NCBI GenBank assembly: GCA_964426805.1
Contig: CAYRRY010000001.1
Span: 2,504-66,503, forward strand
Origin: an uncultured Candidatus Saccharibacteria bacterium
Lineage (GTDB): Bacteria; Patescibacteriota; UBA1384; XYA2-FULL-43-10
Direction of reading: 5' to 3'
Length of the DNA stretch: 64,000 nt
Shown: one piece after another, positions 2,784-63,040 of the stretch
How positions within the stretch are numbered: position 1 is the stretch's first letter
How the letters are laid out: every line of letters begins with the position of its first letter
Notes under the pieces: generated by a model
What the model was told of the DNA's origin: nothing
The model's database searches: none
Seen by the model: the letters and a program-made list of their open reading frames with translations, nothing else
Translations under genes and position numbers: made by a program

Positions 2784-4088
2784 TTATTTGCTCTGTTTTG
2801 AAAGCAATCCCACACACTCTATGTGATGAGTCTGTGGAAAGTTGTCTATGGGCTGTACTTTTTCTAAAATTATCTCGTGCTTCTTAAATTCATTTATGTC
2901 ACGTGCGAAAGTGGCTGGGTTGCAGGAAGCATAGATTAGTCGTTTAAATTTTTGTTTCGAAATCTCACTTACTAATTCTTTTGTAATTCCCGCCCTTGGT
3001 GGGTCAACAATCACAACATTGCTCTCGTACTTATTCAAGTTTATTCTATCTCTAAGATCCAGAGTGTAAAAATTACAATTTTGAACATGATTTAGCTTGG
3101 CGTTGTCTCTAGCGTCGTTAACCGCATTTAAAACTACATCTATCCCGGCTACTTCTTTGGCAAGGGTTGAGAGATAAATGCCGATAGTTCCGGTGCCACA
3201 AAATAAATCCAAGATAGTGTCCCCCGCTTCAACCTTGGCGTATTTTTTGATTATTTCGTAAAGTGTTTTAGCGCCGTATGAATTAGTTTGAAAAAAGGAC
3301 TCTGGAGATATTTGGAACTTAAACTTGCCTATTTTCTCATAAATTATCGGCGAACCAAATATCAGCTTTCGCTTAAGGCTCTTGAGTGACTTATTCGGAG
3401 CAATCGTATGATAAATAGATTTGACCTCATCAATCTTTTTTAAAACCTCTACAATCCCCTCTCTGTTTGGAAGCTCTTCATTGGTTGTAATTAGTTCAAC
3501 CATAATTTCACCAGTTATTTTTCCCTCGCGAATTTTTATCTGCCAGAAAGAAGACTTATACAGAACATTATCATTTATGTAGCTTTTTAATTCATTCAAT
3601 ATTTTATTTGATGTTTCTGATTGGAGGAAACATTCATCTATAGGAACCAACTCATTTTTATAATAGTGGTGTCTAGCAAAAGAGATGTTTTTATTGTTGT
3701 CTAGTAAAAAGAAAAAGCGCATAGAGTTCCTGTAATATAGCGGATGGTTTGACCCGGGCAAGATTGTCTCTGCTTCAATATCAATTTTAGCGCGGTCTAA
3801 AACTTCCTGGAATACTTTCTCTTTAATTTTGAGTTGATTGTCGTAGTTTATGTTCTGATGCCCGCATCCGCCACAATCTTCGAAGTGTGGACACTTGGGT
3901 TCAATGCGGATGTTTGAGGGTTTAATAATTTCATCAATCACGCCCTCTGCAAAAGACTTTTTATTTTTTAAAAGCTTAACTTCTACCTCGTCCCCGGGAA
4001 CGGTTTTGGGTACAAAAATAGGACGACCATTTTCGTCTCGTCCTAATCCAACTCCTGGAAATATAATTTTTTCAATTTTGATTTTCAT
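2784..4088 (-). CDS. 23S rRNA (uracil-5)-methyltransferase, RumA/RlmD family (TRAM domain + Fe-S Cys cluster + SAM MTase)
   Basis: N-terminal TRAM-like beta-barrel. Cys cluster CPHFEDCGGCGHQ. SAM motif LDLFCGTGTIG. Catalytic region DPPRAG...ASCNP. Confidence 0.85.
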   Translation of the reverse strand: MKIKIEKIIFPGVGLGRDENGRPIFVPKTVPGDEVEVKLLKNKKSFAEGVIDEIIKPSNIRIEPKCPHFEDCGGCGHQNINYDNQLKIKEKVFQEVLDRAKIDIEAETILPGSNHPLYYRNSMRFFFLLDNNKNISFARHHYYKNELVPIDECFLQSETSNKILNELKSYINDNVLYKSSFWQIKIREGKITGEIMVELITTNEELPNREGIVEVLKKIDEVKSIYHTIAPNKSLKSLKRKLIFGSPIIYEKIGKFKFQISPESFFQTNSYGAKTLYEIIKKYAKVEAGDTILDLFCGTGTIGIYLSTLAKEVAGIDVVLNAVNDARDNAKLNHVQNCNFYTLDLRDRINLNKYESNVVIVDPPRAGITKELVSEISKQKFKRLIYASCNPATFARDINEFKKHEIILEKVQPIDNFPQTHHIECVGLLSKQSK

Positions 4089-4089
4089 A

Positions 4090-4640
4090 TTAAGTTTGTA
4101 CGACGCGGGAAGTTGCCCTCCCGCGTCGCTTCGGATCCCGTGATTTGCTGAAAAGAATTGCTATCAGTAAATCACGGTCGTTGTCTGGCCGTCAGCTCAC
4201 CAGCGTAGAGGCCTGGCTCAGACAACTGTTTGCCCCGTGAGGAGTGGGGCACGACCGCGGTTGCCTCATGCGCTGGCTGTTGCCGCACGAATCAGCAACT
4301 TCTTCTGCGTCGCACCCATAGGGTGTCTCTCCCTTCTTGGGTATGTGAGGGGCGTTTGCCACTCACTATCACTGTGGAGATGTTCTCGACAAGTTAAAAC
4401 TATCATAAATCTGTCTCGACATCAACACACAACAAATAAAAAAAGACTCACCTAGAGTCTGAAAATAATAACAATTTAGAGGGGGGCGCGTCGGGTAACG
4501 CGCCCCCCTGCAGCTCAAGCAGATTGACAGCACCTAGATAGTGATTTATCCCTTGCGGGGCCACGCTATTCTAGCGCCATCATTGTGTCCGCCTATTCAC
4601 CACCTTTCGGTGGCGGACTATGTAAGAATATACCCTATTG
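4090..4640. ncRNA. GC-rich, highly structured non-coding island; candidate structured RNA(s) of unknown class
   Basis: No credible ORF. Perfect helices include CGACGCGGGA/TCCCGCGTCG (4101-4128), CCGTGATTT/AAATCACGG, GGGGGGCGCG/CGCGCCCCCC (4481-4508) and CCACC-GAAA-GGTGG, a GNRA-type tetraloop nested in GTCCGCC/GGCGGAC. A minus-strand intrinsic terminator follows at 4434-4460. Confidence 0.35.
4434..4460 (-). terminator. intrinsic terminator on minus strand (hairpin AGACTC-TAGGTG-AGTCT followed by TTTTTTTATTT)
   Basis: Read on the minus strand: agactctaggtgagtctttttttatttg. Confidence 0.6.
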
Positions 4641-4644
4641 CTGT

Positions 4645-5202
4645 CTATTTTTCAATTGCTTTATATAGTATTATTCCCGCGGATGTTGCAACGTTTAGAG
4701 AGTTGGCCACGCCGTGCATCGGGATATCAACATAAGCATCGCACAGCGCAAGAGCGCCATCTCCTATCCCCTCTACTTCATTTCCCACAACTATGGCTAT
4801 TGGTTTCTTATATTTAAATTTATTGTAATCGATACTTTCGTCGGTTTGCTCTAGAGCGACCACCGACACATTCTTTTTCTTTAGTTTTTCTATCACATCA
4901 ATTGTATTTTCAAAATATTTGTAAGGTACATGTTCGATAGTCTGAAGAGCAGTTTTTTCTAGATCAGGTCTTGGCGGATGCGCAGTGATTCCACAGAGAA
5001 ATATTTTCTTAACTCTTGCAGCATCGGCTGTTCGAAACATGGCTCCCACATTGTGAACAGAGCGAATATTATCCAAAATCAAATAAACCTCATGGCGAGG
5101 TTTATTTTTGAGGATTTGTAAGTCCCCTTTTCTTTTAATCAATTCTTCAGTATTAAGTTTTTTCATAGTTCCAAGTTCTTTATTCTTAATTCTGCAAAAC
5201 AT
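4645..5202 (-). CDS. SpoU/TrmH-family RNA 2'-O-methyltransferase (likely start at internal Met ~5166)
   Basis: SPOUT motifs: NVGAMFRTADA, VVGNEVEGI and the C-terminal LNVATSAGIILY. Confidence 0.8.
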   Translation of the reverse strand: MFCRIKNKELGTMKKLNTEELIKRKGDLQILKNKPRHEVYLILDNIRSVHNVGAMFRTADAARVKKIFLCGITAHPPRPDLEKTALQTIEHVPYKYFENTIDVIEKLKKKNVSVVALEQTDESIDYNKFKYKKPIAIVVGNEVEGIGDGALALCDAYVDIPMHGVANSLNVATSAGIILYKAIEK

Positions 5203-55626: not shown

Positions 55627-55770
55627 GTTAATTTCTAATATTTATTCCATTATACCAAATATTTACTAAATCACTAAAGACAGAACCCGGAGAGCACTCT
55701 CTTTTAAGTTAATAGGCATTATGGTATATTCTAACTGTTCACGAATTCGACTCCCGGGAGAGATGAAATT

Positions 55771-56445
55771 ATGCCGGATACTGACGTTGCATACGGCCTC
55801 AACGAGGCCGCAGCTCGAGCAACACGAAAGGGAAAGATCCCGTGGTCAGCTGAGGAACTCACCTTCTTCGAATGCCTCGTCTACCTACTCGCTGACAATT
55901 TCCCCTCGTTTGCCAGCGTGTCGTTTGTGGAGAGCGTGGCAAAGCAAGCATTCGCACGGGCTAGCGGCGCCGAAGAGATTCACGCGCTGGCACTCCTCGA
56001 TCGCGAAGGAAGCGTCATCGACAAGTACGTCACTGGGAAGACCAGAACGGATGCCTATATCAGAATGAGGTCGATTCTCACCGATCCGTTCGAGACAATG
56101 AACACAGTGGAGGAGTGCCGCGCGCAACTTCACCTCTGCAAACGCCTGGTCGACCACCCCAGCCTGTACAACGAGCATTACGAACGGCGAGTAGCGGAAC
56201 TCGTGCGACCGCAGCTATCCTCATGCCTCGGCACTAGCTCATTCCTCGGTATCATCGAGCAACTGCCGCCGAACCCAGTCACTATTCTTCCGGAACTCCT
56301 CGAGATCGCCGGCAGACTTTTCGCAGATGCTACTCCCGCGGAGAAAGCCATGATAGCTTGCGCCCTGGGCTACATCGGACTCCCGCCGGAGGGCTGTCCT
56401 GAGTGGATCCGGGAGTACCTGGCGGAGCACCCGCCCGATGCGTAA
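55771..56445 (+). CDS. hypothetical protein encoded by a visibly GC-rich segment (probable foreign origin)
   Basis: 224-aa ORF with Ala/Arg/Pro-rich composition atypical for the window. Followed by a GC hairpin at 56471-56499. Confidence 0.5.
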   Translation: MPDTDVAYGLNEAAARATRKGKIPWSAEELTFFECLVYLLADNFPSFASVSFVESVAKQAFARASGAEEIHALALLDREGSVIDKYVTGKTRTDAYIRMRSILTDPFETMNTVEECRAQLHLCKRLVDHPSLYNEHYERRVAELVRPQLSSCLGTSSFLGIIEQLPPNPVTILPELLEIAGRLFADATPAEKAMIACALGYIGLPPEGCPEWIREYLAEHPPDA

Positions 56446-56470
56446 TCAGCGCATCAAAGCACGAACATAA

Positions 56471-56550
56471 AGACCACCTGGCATGCCAGGTGGTCTTTCT
56501 GCGTATAAATGGAGTATCTCTGCTAAACGCCTCACTCGTGTGAGCCGTAT
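56471..56550. repeat. 14-bp perfect palindrome AAGACCACCTGGCA/TGCCAGGTGGTCTT followed by palindromic repeat copy B (degenerate right arm)
   Basis: Read directly from sequence. Copy B is TGCTAAACGCCTCACTCGTGTGAGCCGTAT. Confidence 0.7.
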
Positions 56551-60853: not shown

Positions 60854-62221
60854 TTAATGAGCGGGATAGTTCCCGTCAAAACATGCTTTACAGAAATCCT
60901 CAGGATCCCACCCAAAAGATCTTATGACTTCATCTAGGCCTTCGAGCGAGAGAAAGTGAAGCTTGTCTGCACCGATCTCTTTGCGAATAGCCTCAACATC
61001 TCCTTTCAGCCGGTGAGCAATCAGCTCCTCGTTGGTTGGGGTATCTATGCCAAGGTTACATCGACAGTAAAACATGGGACAGGGAATAAATACTTCAACC
61101 GAGCTTGGGTTGTTTCTTCGTAGAACCTCGACAACAGGGCCGATAGTTGTTCCACGAACAATTGAGTCGTCCACTACCAACAAGCGAAGACCAGGCTCTG
61201 TCCTGCAAGGAACGTGTTTGCTCCAAACACTAGCTACTCTCATCGACTGCAAAGGCTGAAGAAACGTACGCCTTTTGCCGACGTTAATCAAAAACGGATC
61301 ATATTCTATTCCGCTCTCCCGATACAGTCCAAGAGCTCCACCAAGACCGCTGTTGAGCACTGGCACCACGCGAGCGTCGGAGTCAGGCAAGAGGCCAACT
61401 TCCCTGGCAAGCTGTGCGCCCAAAGCTTTTCGGAAATCCAAGCAGGTAACGCCTCTGAACTTAGAAAACGCTCTTTGGAAATAGATGAACTCGAAGATGC
61501 AGTTGTCAGGATCTGCTGGCGCAAAACGTTCACGTTGCACGGTGCCGTCCGGGTGGACGTAGACCACCTCTCCCGGCTCAACCTCACCATCGACAGTCCC
61601 GCCGACACTCTCTATGGCACAAGTCTCGGAAGCGGCAAGAAAGGCAGTGCGACCATCTATCTCGATATGCCCGGTGTACAAAGGACGAATGCCGTGCGGG
61701 TCTCGCACATAGGCCACAACTCCTCCTGATTGAAGAATACAGAGGGAGTAAGAGCCTTCAAGTTTCGTACAAACCGAGGTAATCCGTTCATGCAATGTCC
61801 CTTTGGCCTGCGCCAGAAGTGCAGCCACGTACTCGGTATCGCTTCCGAACTCCATCTCCTTCTCTGTTCCTGGAACGAGCATGCCTTGAAGATCGTCAAC
61901 GTTGGTAATGTTGCCGTTGTGAGCAAGTGCAATATCACCAACGTGGAACGGGTGTGCACCCGCTTCGCCAGAGCCAGCGCTTGTTGGGTATCGGACATGG
62001 CCGATGCTTGCTCGACCAAGCAGAAGCGTTCGCATGCGCTCAGAAAAAACTTCTTCCGGACTGCCTTGGCCCTTGACTACTCTCAGCTCATTTGGCTCGC
62101 ACCCCCCGGATATCGCTATCCCAGCTGCATCATCGCCCCTGTTTGTCTGCATTTCAAGCATTCCCAATACGAGCGTTGCGGCCGAAAGATCTATGCAACT
62201 TGCACCGGCAATACCACACAT
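60854..62221 (-). CDS. purF: amidophosphoribosyltransferase (glutamine PRPP amidotransferase), GC-rich gene; start at Met 62221 so that Cys is the N-terminal nucleophile
   Basis: MCGIAG Ntn start, PRTase motif VVDDSIVRGTT, C-terminal Cys cluster. Codon usage is visibly GC-richer than neighbours. Confidence 0.85.
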   Translation of the reverse strand: MCGIAGASCIDLSAATLVLGMLEMQTNRGDDAAGIAISGGCEPNELRVVKGQGSPEEVFSERMRTLLLGRASIGHVRYPTSAGSGEAGAHPFHVGDIALAHNGNITNVDDLQGMLVPGTEKEMEFGSDTEYVAALLAQAKGTLHERITSVCTKLEGSYSLCILQSGGVVAYVRDPHGIRPLYTGHIEIDGRTAFLAASETCAIESVGGTVDGEVEPGEVVYVHPDGTVQRERFAPADPDNCIFEFIYFQRAFSKFRGVTCLDFRKALGAQLAREVGLLPDSDARVVPVLNSGLGGALGLYRESGIEYDPFLINVGKRRTFLQPLQSMRVASVWSKHVPCRTEPGLRLLVVDDSIVRGTTIGPVVEVLRRNNPSSVEVFIPCPMFYCRCNLGIDTPTNEELIAHRLKGDVEAIRKEIGADKLHFLSLEGLDEVIRSFGWDPEDFCKACFDGNYPAH

Positions 62222-62395
62222 GCAATTCGCTCTCCTTTTTGGATGTAAAAGTGCAAAGTTCACTTCTCACTGTTAATATAACAGCTATTCAGGTTAAAGT
62301 AATCTTTTTGTTCCAAATTAAACAATATAAAAAAATACCCGCGTAGACAGGCATGTAATAGCAAAACAATTTAGGCTAACCCAATAATTTCGAAC

Positions 62396-62428
62396 TTGCT
62401 AAACGCCTCATGCGAGTGAGGCGTTTGG
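62396..62428. repeat. palindromic repeat copy D (TTGCTAAACGCCTCA-tgcgag-TGAGGCGTTTGG), direct orientation relative to copy C
   Basis: Read directly from sequence. Confidence 0.75.
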
Positions 62429-62439
62429 CGACAAGACAA

Positions 62440-63040
62440 AAAAAACACCGAGCTATATGCAATGTGTATTTTTTTATACTATATAATCAATCCTCTTTTG
62501 CTCCATAAAAACAACACAGGCCCGACGACTGTCGAGACCTGCTAGTAGTGTGCATTCCCCAATTGAGGAGTGCTGTATTATTGCGAGGCGTAGTGAAACC
62601 GCCCAGTCCACCGTAGTGCAGTAGTACATACTGCTGCCGTAAGTGGCATGTCTTTGCGCGGGTTTTTCCTGAGGCGCCAGGGCGACTTACGGTGCCCTAG
62701 CCTGCGTCGATATGCGCGCGTGACTGAGTGCGCGAAGTGTCATGATACCACCTCCAGCAAACGAGATGTGCTCGCGCTAGGCCTTGATACAGTGGAGCGG
62801 AACTTCTGAGGGTTCGAACAACTGGGTTGGTTGACGTCACGAGTCCCGGAGTCCAGGAGGTGGATCGGACAGGGGCCAAAGATGGGTACATCTTGCGCGA
62901 TGGAGCGCGGTGTTTATGTATTGTCATGCTTTTACCGCTCAGCATGACTCGGAAAGCCTCGCCTCCTTAAATGCATCGCCAACAATTATGCTCATGTTCA
63001 ATATTTAGTATACTCTAAACATTTTCGATGTCAACAATAA
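62440..63040. ncRNA. GC-rich, non-coding, highly structured region; candidate large structured RNA of unknown class
   Basis: No credible ORF. Local hairpins GCAGTA-gtaca-TACTGC, CGCGC..GCGCG and CATGCT..AGCATG. Long-range complementarity CCGTAAGT/ACTTACGG and CCACCTCC (62748)/GGAGGTGG (62866). Ends at a terminator-like hairpin. Confidence 0.3.

Follow-up and report, generated by a model that had tools for sequence, protein, structure and literature searches.

Genes for rRNA methyltransferases of the erm family are controlled by leader-peptide attenuation. In the cry3A and hbs mRNAs, a 30S subunit is held on a Shine-Dalgarno (SD) tract without initiation and blocks 5'-end-dependent decay (Agaisse and Lereclus, 1996, as cited in PMC12970973 and PMC7509114), and ribosome blocking of RNase J1 has also been described (PMC5737220). 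We compared these systems with a 556-nt GC-rich island in a 64-kb stretch of contig CAYRRY010000001.1 from an uncultured Candidatus Saccharibacteria bacterium (the whole stretch of 64,000 nt is referred to below as the window). The island fills the spacer between two RNA-methyltransferase genes, trmH and rumA/rlmD, and is strongly folded, non-coding and strand-biased. The reading that we favor, with about even confidence, is that it constitutes a clade-specific, fast-evolving non-coding RNA locus inserted between otherwise adjacent genes and composed of a small RNA (sRNA) and a structured rumA leader. To our knowledge, almost nothing is known about non-coding RNAs in the Patescibacteria (CPR), and our full-text literature search on this subject yielded no paper.

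The spacer extends from 4089 to 4644 (coordinates are positions in the window, and L-numbers denote loci of related genomes) and is flanked by two minus-strand genes. Its GC content is 0.51, reaching 0.57-0.60 in 200-nt windows, against a mean of 0.40 for the 64-kb window; of the 18 spacers there that reach 120 nt, no other is GC-rich, their values being 0.24-0.43. The longest spacer open reading frame (ORF) has 72 amino acids, and no spacer ORF has a Pfam match passing the cut-off. These results agree with an earlier note on this DNA, made from the sequence alone, which had described about 550 bp without a credible ORF, GC-rich in an AT-rich genome. The minimum free energy (MFE) of the minus strand is -226.2 kcal/mol compared to -173.4 +/- 7.1 kcal/mol for dinucleotide shuffles (z -7.45), with 0/100 shuffles as stable; for the plus strand of the spacer, z is -6.69. 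When folded separately, the two halves of the minus strand, unit 1 (about 4622 to 4434) and unit 2 (4433 to 4089), gave z values of -4.6 and -6.9. They correspond to the two segments that the earlier note had predicted, namely a structured minus-strand RNA of ~200 nt after trmH, which is recovered as a predicted unit of about 190 nt, and a structured ~340-bp segment before the rumA start. All stems quoted there were located in the spacer, at 4101-4110/4119-4128 (10/10), 4480-4491/4498-4509 (12/12), 4138-4151/4164-4177 (13/14) and 4180-4187/4219-4226 (8/8).

The fold is biased toward the strand of the flanking genes. In 6/6 complete homologous spacers the gene strand is more stable than the antisense strand, by 3.6-30 kcal/mol, and has at least as many G-U pairs. 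GNRA loops (GAAA, GCAA) and a U-tailed terminator are present on the minus strand only. The island is most likely read on the minus strand, the same as the flanking genes.

The island matches no known RNA family. Rfam 15 at the gathering score returned only two tRNAs from the whole 64-kb window. At E <= 10 with relaxed filters, the region 3900-4800, the L056 spacer and the loci of five relatives gave only chance-level matches to unrelated families, and no family recurred between homologous spacers. ARAGORN reported no tmRNA, finding just two tRNAs in the window and nothing in the five relatives' loci. The earlier note had offered three candidates: a housekeeping RNA (RNase P RNA, tmRNA, signal recognition particle (SRP) RNA or 6S RNA), a riboswitch-like leader and a novel non-coding RNA. 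The first is contradicted by the Rfam searches, negative to E <= 10, and by ARAGORN. The RNaseP_bact_a/b covariance models had no match in the window or in relatives even at E <= 10, tmRNA was negative in both programs, and SRP RNA (4.5S) had no Rfam match even at E <= 10. 6S RNA likewise had no Rfam match, and unit 1 folds into separate hairpins with unpaired ends, not into a closing stem with a central bubble. As to the second candidate, no curated Rfam cis-regulatory match to known riboswitches or to ribosomal or amino-acid leaders was obtained, but a leader in the general sense survives, together with the third candidate, as a novel RNA or leader with no Rfam family.

A divergent housekeeping RNA missed by Rfam, either RNase P RNA as unit 2 or 6S, SRP or tmRNA as unit 1, is an extremely improbable explanation, although the lengths fit (unit 2, about 340 nt). 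Larger units in the L056 and L049 spacers also hold GGUAACG and the P9-like sequence GGGGAAACCCAUGACC. This sequence differs by one base from GGGGGAAACCCACGACC, which we take to be the P9 region of E. coli M1 RNA. The RNase P reading of these units has no covariance-model support and the motif is absent from the window. The CR-I (GAGGAAAGUCC) and CR-V (ACAGAAnCCGGCUUA) consensus strings for the P4 helix are absent from the spacer, and neither a P4 pairing nor a CR-I/CR-V consensus could be threaded. Furthermore, the units are rows of local hairpins without long-range helices, and housekeeping RNAs do not turn over fully between genomes with HisRS 80-92% identical. The L056 and L049 sequences themselves (L056:4080-4520 and L049:3040-3600) form a larger homologous RNA-like unit of 450-520 nt and share the identical blocks GGGGAAACCCATGACC, AATTGGGTAGACGA and GCCTATrAAGAAATT, their flanking proteins being only about 70% identical; this unit has no Rfam match and was not found in viral contigs. 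A by-eye likeness of GACGGCCAGAC..CGUGAUUUACUGAUAGC to the A2058 region of 23S rRNA had no large-subunit rRNA match at E <= 10 and was rejected as chance.

The history of the spacer was reconstructed from the gene junction in relatives. The two flanking genes of the window are as follows:

Positions 4645-5202, minus strand: gene of a SpoU/TrmH-type methyltransferase (trmH).
Positions 2784-4088, minus strand: gene with TRAM and U5-methyltransferase domains, RumA/RlmD type (rumA/rlmD), with its ATG at 4088.

In the wider neighborhood, hisS lies upstream and lexA downstream of the trmH-rumA pair; the closest named homologues are from 'Patescibacteria group' and Berkelbacteria metagenome-assembled genomes. 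In distant Patescibacteria, 0-25 nt separate the trmH stop from the rumA start; where RlmD is 44-62% identical, the junction is TAAATG in L003 and L004 and the gap measures about 20 nt or less in L024-L028. An expanded spacer (164-1003 nt) is restricted to the clade in which RlmD identity is 65% or more, with the following lengths:

L048: 164 nt.
L053 and L054: 509 nt.
Window: 556 nt.
L058: 620 nt.
L056: 818 nt.
L049: about 1003 nt.
L051: at least 184 nt (the contig ends).

Because the outgroups have abutting or nearly abutting genes and only the clade at or above 65% identity is expanded, the sequences place the island as an insertion or expansion specific to one clade. In L048 the whole 164-nt spacer is one unit abutting rumA, which suggests that this is the simpler ancestral state and that two-unit spacers may have arisen by duplication and divergence.

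Within the clade, the spacer sequence is almost wholly different in each genome, and blastn and nhmmer find next to nothing between spacers of the same genomes whose HisRS proteins are 80-92% identical. MAFFT, RNAalifold and nhmmer gave no reliable whole-unit alignment, so that a single element, the 5' hairpin P1, was testable for covariation. What recurs in relatives is an order of elements: P1, a variable hairpin, a GC clamp of 11-16 bp and a U-tailed terminator. Between L053 and L054, which belong to one species, the spacer differs at 1.38% of sites and the flanking genes at about 0.24%. All of these spacer differences are transitions, and 5/7 go from GC to AT; that the GC content is kept high despite this bias argues that the hairpins are selected.

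The same comparison bears on the possibility that the island is a non-functional insertion remnant, that is, a decayed mobile element, an acquired GC-rich fragment or a dead cassette, with its hairpins being leftovers or DNA palindromes. We regard this as unlikely. It would accommodate the absence from outgroups, the different content in each relative, an evolutionary rate 5-6 times that of the neighbor genes, the frequent breaking of assemblies inside the spacer and the presence in the window of a second GC-rich island (55771-56445), a foreign-looking ORF with a near-identical promoter. It does not accommodate the strand preference for the sense strand in 6/6 spacers, the compensatory changes in P1 and the recurrence of a very strong SD-like tract (the 'super-SD'), all described below or above, and in neutral sequence of a 40% GC genome with a GC-to-AT bias the GC hairpins should be lost. 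The island also has no second copy in the window or in any fetched locus. Genes for a transposase, integrase or reverse transcriptase were not called in those locus flanks that were read, the spacer is not bounded by terminal repeats, inverted or direct, and there was neither a phage or plasmid match nor protein similarity to the GC-rich ORF.

Specific mobile candidates were rejected on similar grounds: a phage, plasmid or other mobile origin (blastn against phages and plasmids gave no match, the window has no second copy, and bounding repeats are absent) and REP or MITE repeats (repetitive extragenic palindromes and miniature inverted-repeat transposable elements; neither the 64-kb window nor about 150 kb of related loci contains a second copy, and again there are no bounding repeats). 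The second GC-rich island covers 55719-56500 on the plus strand with a GC content of about 0.57 and is probably horizontally acquired. Its 224-aa ORF (55771-56445) has no Pfam match and no match in any relative's locus. A GC hairpin at 56473-56500 forms its terminator; the promoter, TGGTATATTCT, is nearly the same as that of unit 1, and the P1 model finds a weak match in the leader (E 3.3). A reading of the spacer as a pseudogene of this ORF was rejected, since the similarity shown by tblastn and blastn is confined to about 20 nt of the promoter. GC-rich stretches (0.54-0.56) are also found at 61263-62985 and are at least partly coding (469-aa ORF at 60854-62263, minus strand, with glutamine amidotransferase domains).

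Contig breaks cluster in the trmH-rumA spacer across metagenome assemblies (also L021/L057, L050, L052 and L051/L059). In the window strain, the end of one ENA contig is at 4625 and the start of another at 4638, an overlap of 14 nt (ATAGGGTATATTCT), and a JGI contig begins at 4637. The window strain and a 68% relative occur in both the ENA and the JGI data, which may be the same reads; the two assemblies breaking at 4625-4638 probably derive from the same reads. An att-like core at this 14-nt overlap was considered and rejected, as the window has just one further near-match, the similar promoter at 55719-55732. Contigs of relatives likewise end within their spacers, in one case inside a GC-hairpin loop. 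Either variation between strains or a drop in coverage at GC hairpins may account for the breaks. Three further irregularities were noted at related loci: a tandem repeat TGGGTAG x5 directly past the trmH stop (L058:846-880), a rumA split in two ORFs (337-507 and 528-1544 in L052:337-1544) by a frameshift or assembly error, and a trmH-like frame, 73% identical, without ATG and with no gene called (L049:2477-2995).

In unit 1, the following elements were recognized in the order of reading:

Positions 4627-4655, minus strand: promoter-like element with a -35 box TTGAAA (4655-4650, in the last trmH codons), a 17-nt spacer and a -10 box TATATT (4632-4627).
Positions 4587-4618, minus strand: P1, the 5' hairpin, with an outer helix GUCCGCC/GGCGGAC, a GAAA-capped inner helix and a 3' internal loop UGAAUA.
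Positions 4597-4608, minus strand: 'super-SD' tract GAAAGGUGGUGA, without a start codon at usable distance.
Positions 4523-4583, minus strand: P2, a long irregular hairpin with the tip CCC-GCAA-GGG, a GNRA loop only on the minus strand.
Positions 4480-4509, minus strand: P3, a GC clamp hairpin of 12-13 bp.
Positions 4434-4460, minus strand: intrinsic terminator, AGACUC-UAGGU-GAGUCU followed by U7.

The promoter-like element scores 10/12 against the consensus, and its -10 box TATATT with the flank GTATATTCT occupies the same site, just past the trmH stop, in the window, L048 and L058. No terminator was found between trmH and unit 1. The minus-strand intrinsic terminator that the earlier note had placed at 4434-4460 was recovered as a hairpin at 4460-4444 followed by the T-run TTTTTTTATTT to 4434, on the minus strand only; sense-strand terminators are also found in L058 and L053, where they follow the GC clamp, and in L049. 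Based on these signals, transcription of unit 1 is predicted to start at about 4622 and to end at about 4434. Unit 1 would then be an sRNA about 190 nt long, transcribed either from its own sigma-70-like promoter, which overlaps the trmH stop, or as the untranslated 3' part (3'UTR) of a hisS-trmH transcript, with P1 presenting the strong SD-like tract and followed by P2, P3 and the terminator.

P1 is the element for which conservation could be assessed at the level of base pairs. The earlier note had reported a GNRA-capped helix within GTCCGCC/GGCGGAC; both helices are present at 4587-4618 on the minus strand, but they overlap by 2 nt and for this reason cannot both form fully. Forcing P1 in the window costs 2.8 kcal/mol above the MFE. 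The outer 7-bp helix is paired in 21/21 cells of the comparison between the window, L048 and L058, with 2/7 pairs altered on both sides (one of them being C-G, A-U and U-A) and 2 more altered via G-U. In control comparisons, slid registers gave at most 58% pairing, and 24/500 shuffles reached the observed score. A P1 covariance model (R1) matched only at the trmH-rumA locus of the window, L058 and L048, with E values of 5e-9 to 7e-7. P1 and the SD-like tract are conserved in the clade. A variable hairpin occupies the position of P2 in L058, L048 and L056 unit 2, and GC hairpins of 11-16 bp with unrelated stem sequence are the counterparts of P3 in L058, L053, L056 and L048. The C-rich (anti-SD-like) loop of P3 was rejected as a seed, since the loops differ between members. 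The earlier note had held that a negative Rfam result together with a lack of conservation and compensatory changes would speak against an RNA: Rfam was negative, while P1 is compensated and the architecture recurs at the locus.

The SD-like tract was evaluated by its duplex energy with a canonical anti-SD tail, in comparison with shuffles and with 55 gene start regions of the window. The duplex of the window tract GAAAGGUGGUGA has an energy of -17.3 kcal/mol, matched by 3% of shuffles, and all 55 ribosome-binding sites of window genes are weaker (minimum -12.7, median -5.2 kcal/mol). A tract of -15 to -18 kcal/mol is present in 6/7 spacers (p <= 0.03 each versus shuffles), and in every spacer an SD-like tract lies 15-45 nt past the first -10-like box, the 5' ends being predicted ones. 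No conserved ORF follows the tract across spacers: window unit 1 and L048 lack a start codon at usable distance, the SD-linked ORFs elsewhere have 0-54 codons without a common sequence, and L053 unit 2 has none. Strong complementarity to the 16S 3' end and the lack of a following start codon of a conserved ORF are properties of a STAB-SD element, and the most likely role of the conserved 5' element would be a STAB-SD-like one. In such a mechanism, a 30S subunit would bind the SD-like tract without productive initiation and, together with the 5' hairpin, shield the RNA from 5'-end-dependent decay, and the GC clamps and terminator would guard the 3' side.

These SD tracts also raise the question of very small protein genes translated from strong SD sites, a possibility that we consider very unlikely. 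The tracts are indeed very strong, and an AUG lies 6-10 nt downstream in unit 2 and in several relatives. However, unit 1 of the window and L048 offer no usable start codon, the predicted peptides of 0-54 aa have no common sequence and no passing Pfam match, and rows of perfect GC hairpins are atypical of coding sequence. Coding potential was rejected on the same evidence, spacer ORFs being without a passing Pfam match and SD-linked mini-ORFs not being conserved.

Under the preferred reading of an sRNA followed by a leader, unit 2 would repeat the logic of unit 1, with an SD-like hairpin, local hairpins and a GC clamp, as a long structured 5' leader of rumA. Its elements are as follows:

Positions 4379-4423, minus strand: AT-rich hairpin with two direct copies of TGTCGAGA (spacing 30 nt) on either side of a weak -10-like TAGTTT.
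Positions 4314-4342, minus strand: P1' hairpin with a second SD-like tract AAGAAGGGAGAGA (4326-4338), anti-SD duplex -13.1 kcal/mol.
Positions 4266-4319, minus strand: 17-codon mini-ORF (MGATQKKLLIRAATASA), 8-9 nt past the second SD-like tract, not kept in relatives.
Positions 4138-4299, minus strand: four consecutive local hairpins (4260-4299, 4232-4250, 4180-4226 and 4138-4177).
Positions 4101-4128, minus strand: GC clamp hairpin CGACGCGGGA-GGGCAACU-UCCCGCGUCG, 12 nt before the rumA ATG (4088).

The TAGTTT region is a possible, unconvincing start of unit 2 and was not called by the promoter scan. The two TGTCGAGA copies lie at 4384-4391 and 4414-4421 in the minus-strand reading, the upstream copy within the palindrome TGTCGAGACA and the downstream copy reading TGTCGAGAAC; the pair could be an operator, and lexA is located two genes downstream. 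A perfect GC hairpin of 10-16 bp is found 10-17 nt ahead of the rumA ATG in the window, L048, L049, L058 and L051 (5/7), and in these five genomes the ATG has no SD. The GC hairpin sits 42 nt ahead of the ATG in L053 and 138 nt ahead in L056.

A rival explanation is a cis-regulatory leader or attenuator of rumA/rlmD, which would sense a ligand, the ribosome state or translation of a leader peptide and gate rumA read-through or translation via the terminator and the clamp ahead of the ATG. We give this explanation a small but appreciable chance. It draws on the single unit of L048, which fills the 164-nt spacer and runs straight into rumA, on the GC clamp 10-17 nt ahead of an SD-less ATG in five genomes, on the SD plus AUG(AUG) mini-ORFs in several units, on the terminator between trmH and rumA, and on the downstream gene encoding an rRNA methyltransferase, as in the erm family. 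No switch is visible, however: pairing of a clamp half with upstream sequence is at the chance level in the window (z -0.02), and an erm-like switch based on a by-eye complementarity of 8+6 bp between the mini-ORF and the clamp was rejected, its duplex energy being at the shuffle mean. The clamp leaves the start codon uncovered, the mini-ORFs vary from 0 to 45 codons, have no common sequence and are absent from L048 and L053 unit 2, no Rfam riboswitch or leader was matched even at E <= 10, and the sequence turns over much too fast for a ligand-binding pocket.

Several points weigh against the reading of the island as an sRNA with a structured rumA leader. The promoter and terminator calls are consensus matches whose number does not exceed the shuffle expectation, and for unit 2 no convincing promoter was found. 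The covariation concerns one 7-bp helix in three genomes, with its score reached by the 24/500 shuffles given above, and the clade supplied only seven distinct spacers, too diverged for nhmmer to link. The within-species divergence of the spacer, 5-6 times that of the flanking genes, implies weak constraint on much of its length. In the MFE structure of the window, part of the SD-like tract is paired, which would hinder 30S binding, and the canonical 16S 3' tail is an assumption whose sole support is the SD motifs of window genes.

A more far-reaching version of the favored reading, to which we assign only a slim chance, is that the trmH-rlmD junction is a hotspot where modular RNA cassettes (promoter, a very strong SD decoy displayed on a hairpin, variable hairpins and GC clamp) duplicate, shuffle and get replaced. 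Such RNAs would work via the anti-SD tail, either as decoys or sponges for 30S subunits or as stable RNAs shielded by ribosomes. If this were true, the expression of rRNA-modifying enzymes would be tied to the pool of free 30S subunits.

The locus provides a testable candidate RNA family, absent from Rfam and confined to one clade, between rRNA- and tRNA-modification genes. If transcribed, it would be among the first sRNA or leader families defined in Patescibacteria and would carry the STAB-SD principle outside the Firmicutes. If it is not transcribed, the lesson would be that a strongly folding GC-rich island in a reduced, AT-rich genome is not necessarily a housekeeping RNA.

Compared with known systems, the island resembles in part the REP elements and related bacterial interspersed mosaic elements (BIME) and the MITE palindromes, which are GC-rich perfect intergenic hairpins, strain-variable and associated with assembly breaks; unlike these, it is single-copy, lacks terminal repeats, folds asymmetrically with respect to strand and has a conserved putative promoter and 5' hairpin. 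With RNase P RNA it shares the size of unit 2 and one P9-like short motif in the larger units of relatives, but it differs in having no model match, no P4, CR-I/CR-V or long-range helices, and no copy of that motif in the window. The erm attenuation leaders are similar in having a structured leader, an SD and short ORF before an rRNA methyltransferase gene, and a hairpin near the start codon. In contrast to erm, the leader peptide is unconserved, alternative pairing is at chance, the clamp ends 12 nt before the ATG, and the downstream enzyme is of the 5-methyluridine (m5U), RlmD-like type, not Erm.

As in the STAB-SD elements of cry3A of Bacillus thuringiensis and hbs of B. subtilis, an SD-like tract fully complementary to the 16S 3' end starts no protein, and in the island it would lie near the predicted RNA 5' end, as it does in those mRNAs; the cry3A element is GAAAGGAGG and the window tract is GAAAGGUGGUGA. 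The difference is that the island tract heads a predicted small RNA and a leader in an uncultivated Patescibacterium and is partly buried in a hairpin. Like terminator-ended or 3'UTR-derived sRNAs, unit 1 has about 190 nt, directly follows a gene with a -10 box at the gene end, consists of a hairpin stack with a U7 terminator, and is lineage-restricted and quickly evolving; unlike them, it belongs to no Rfam 15 family and is accompanied by a second similar unit that runs into the next gene with no terminator. Overall, the locus is most likely a lineage-restricted small RNA together with a structured rlmD leader, both predicted, of the kind known for bacterial sRNAs and leaders.

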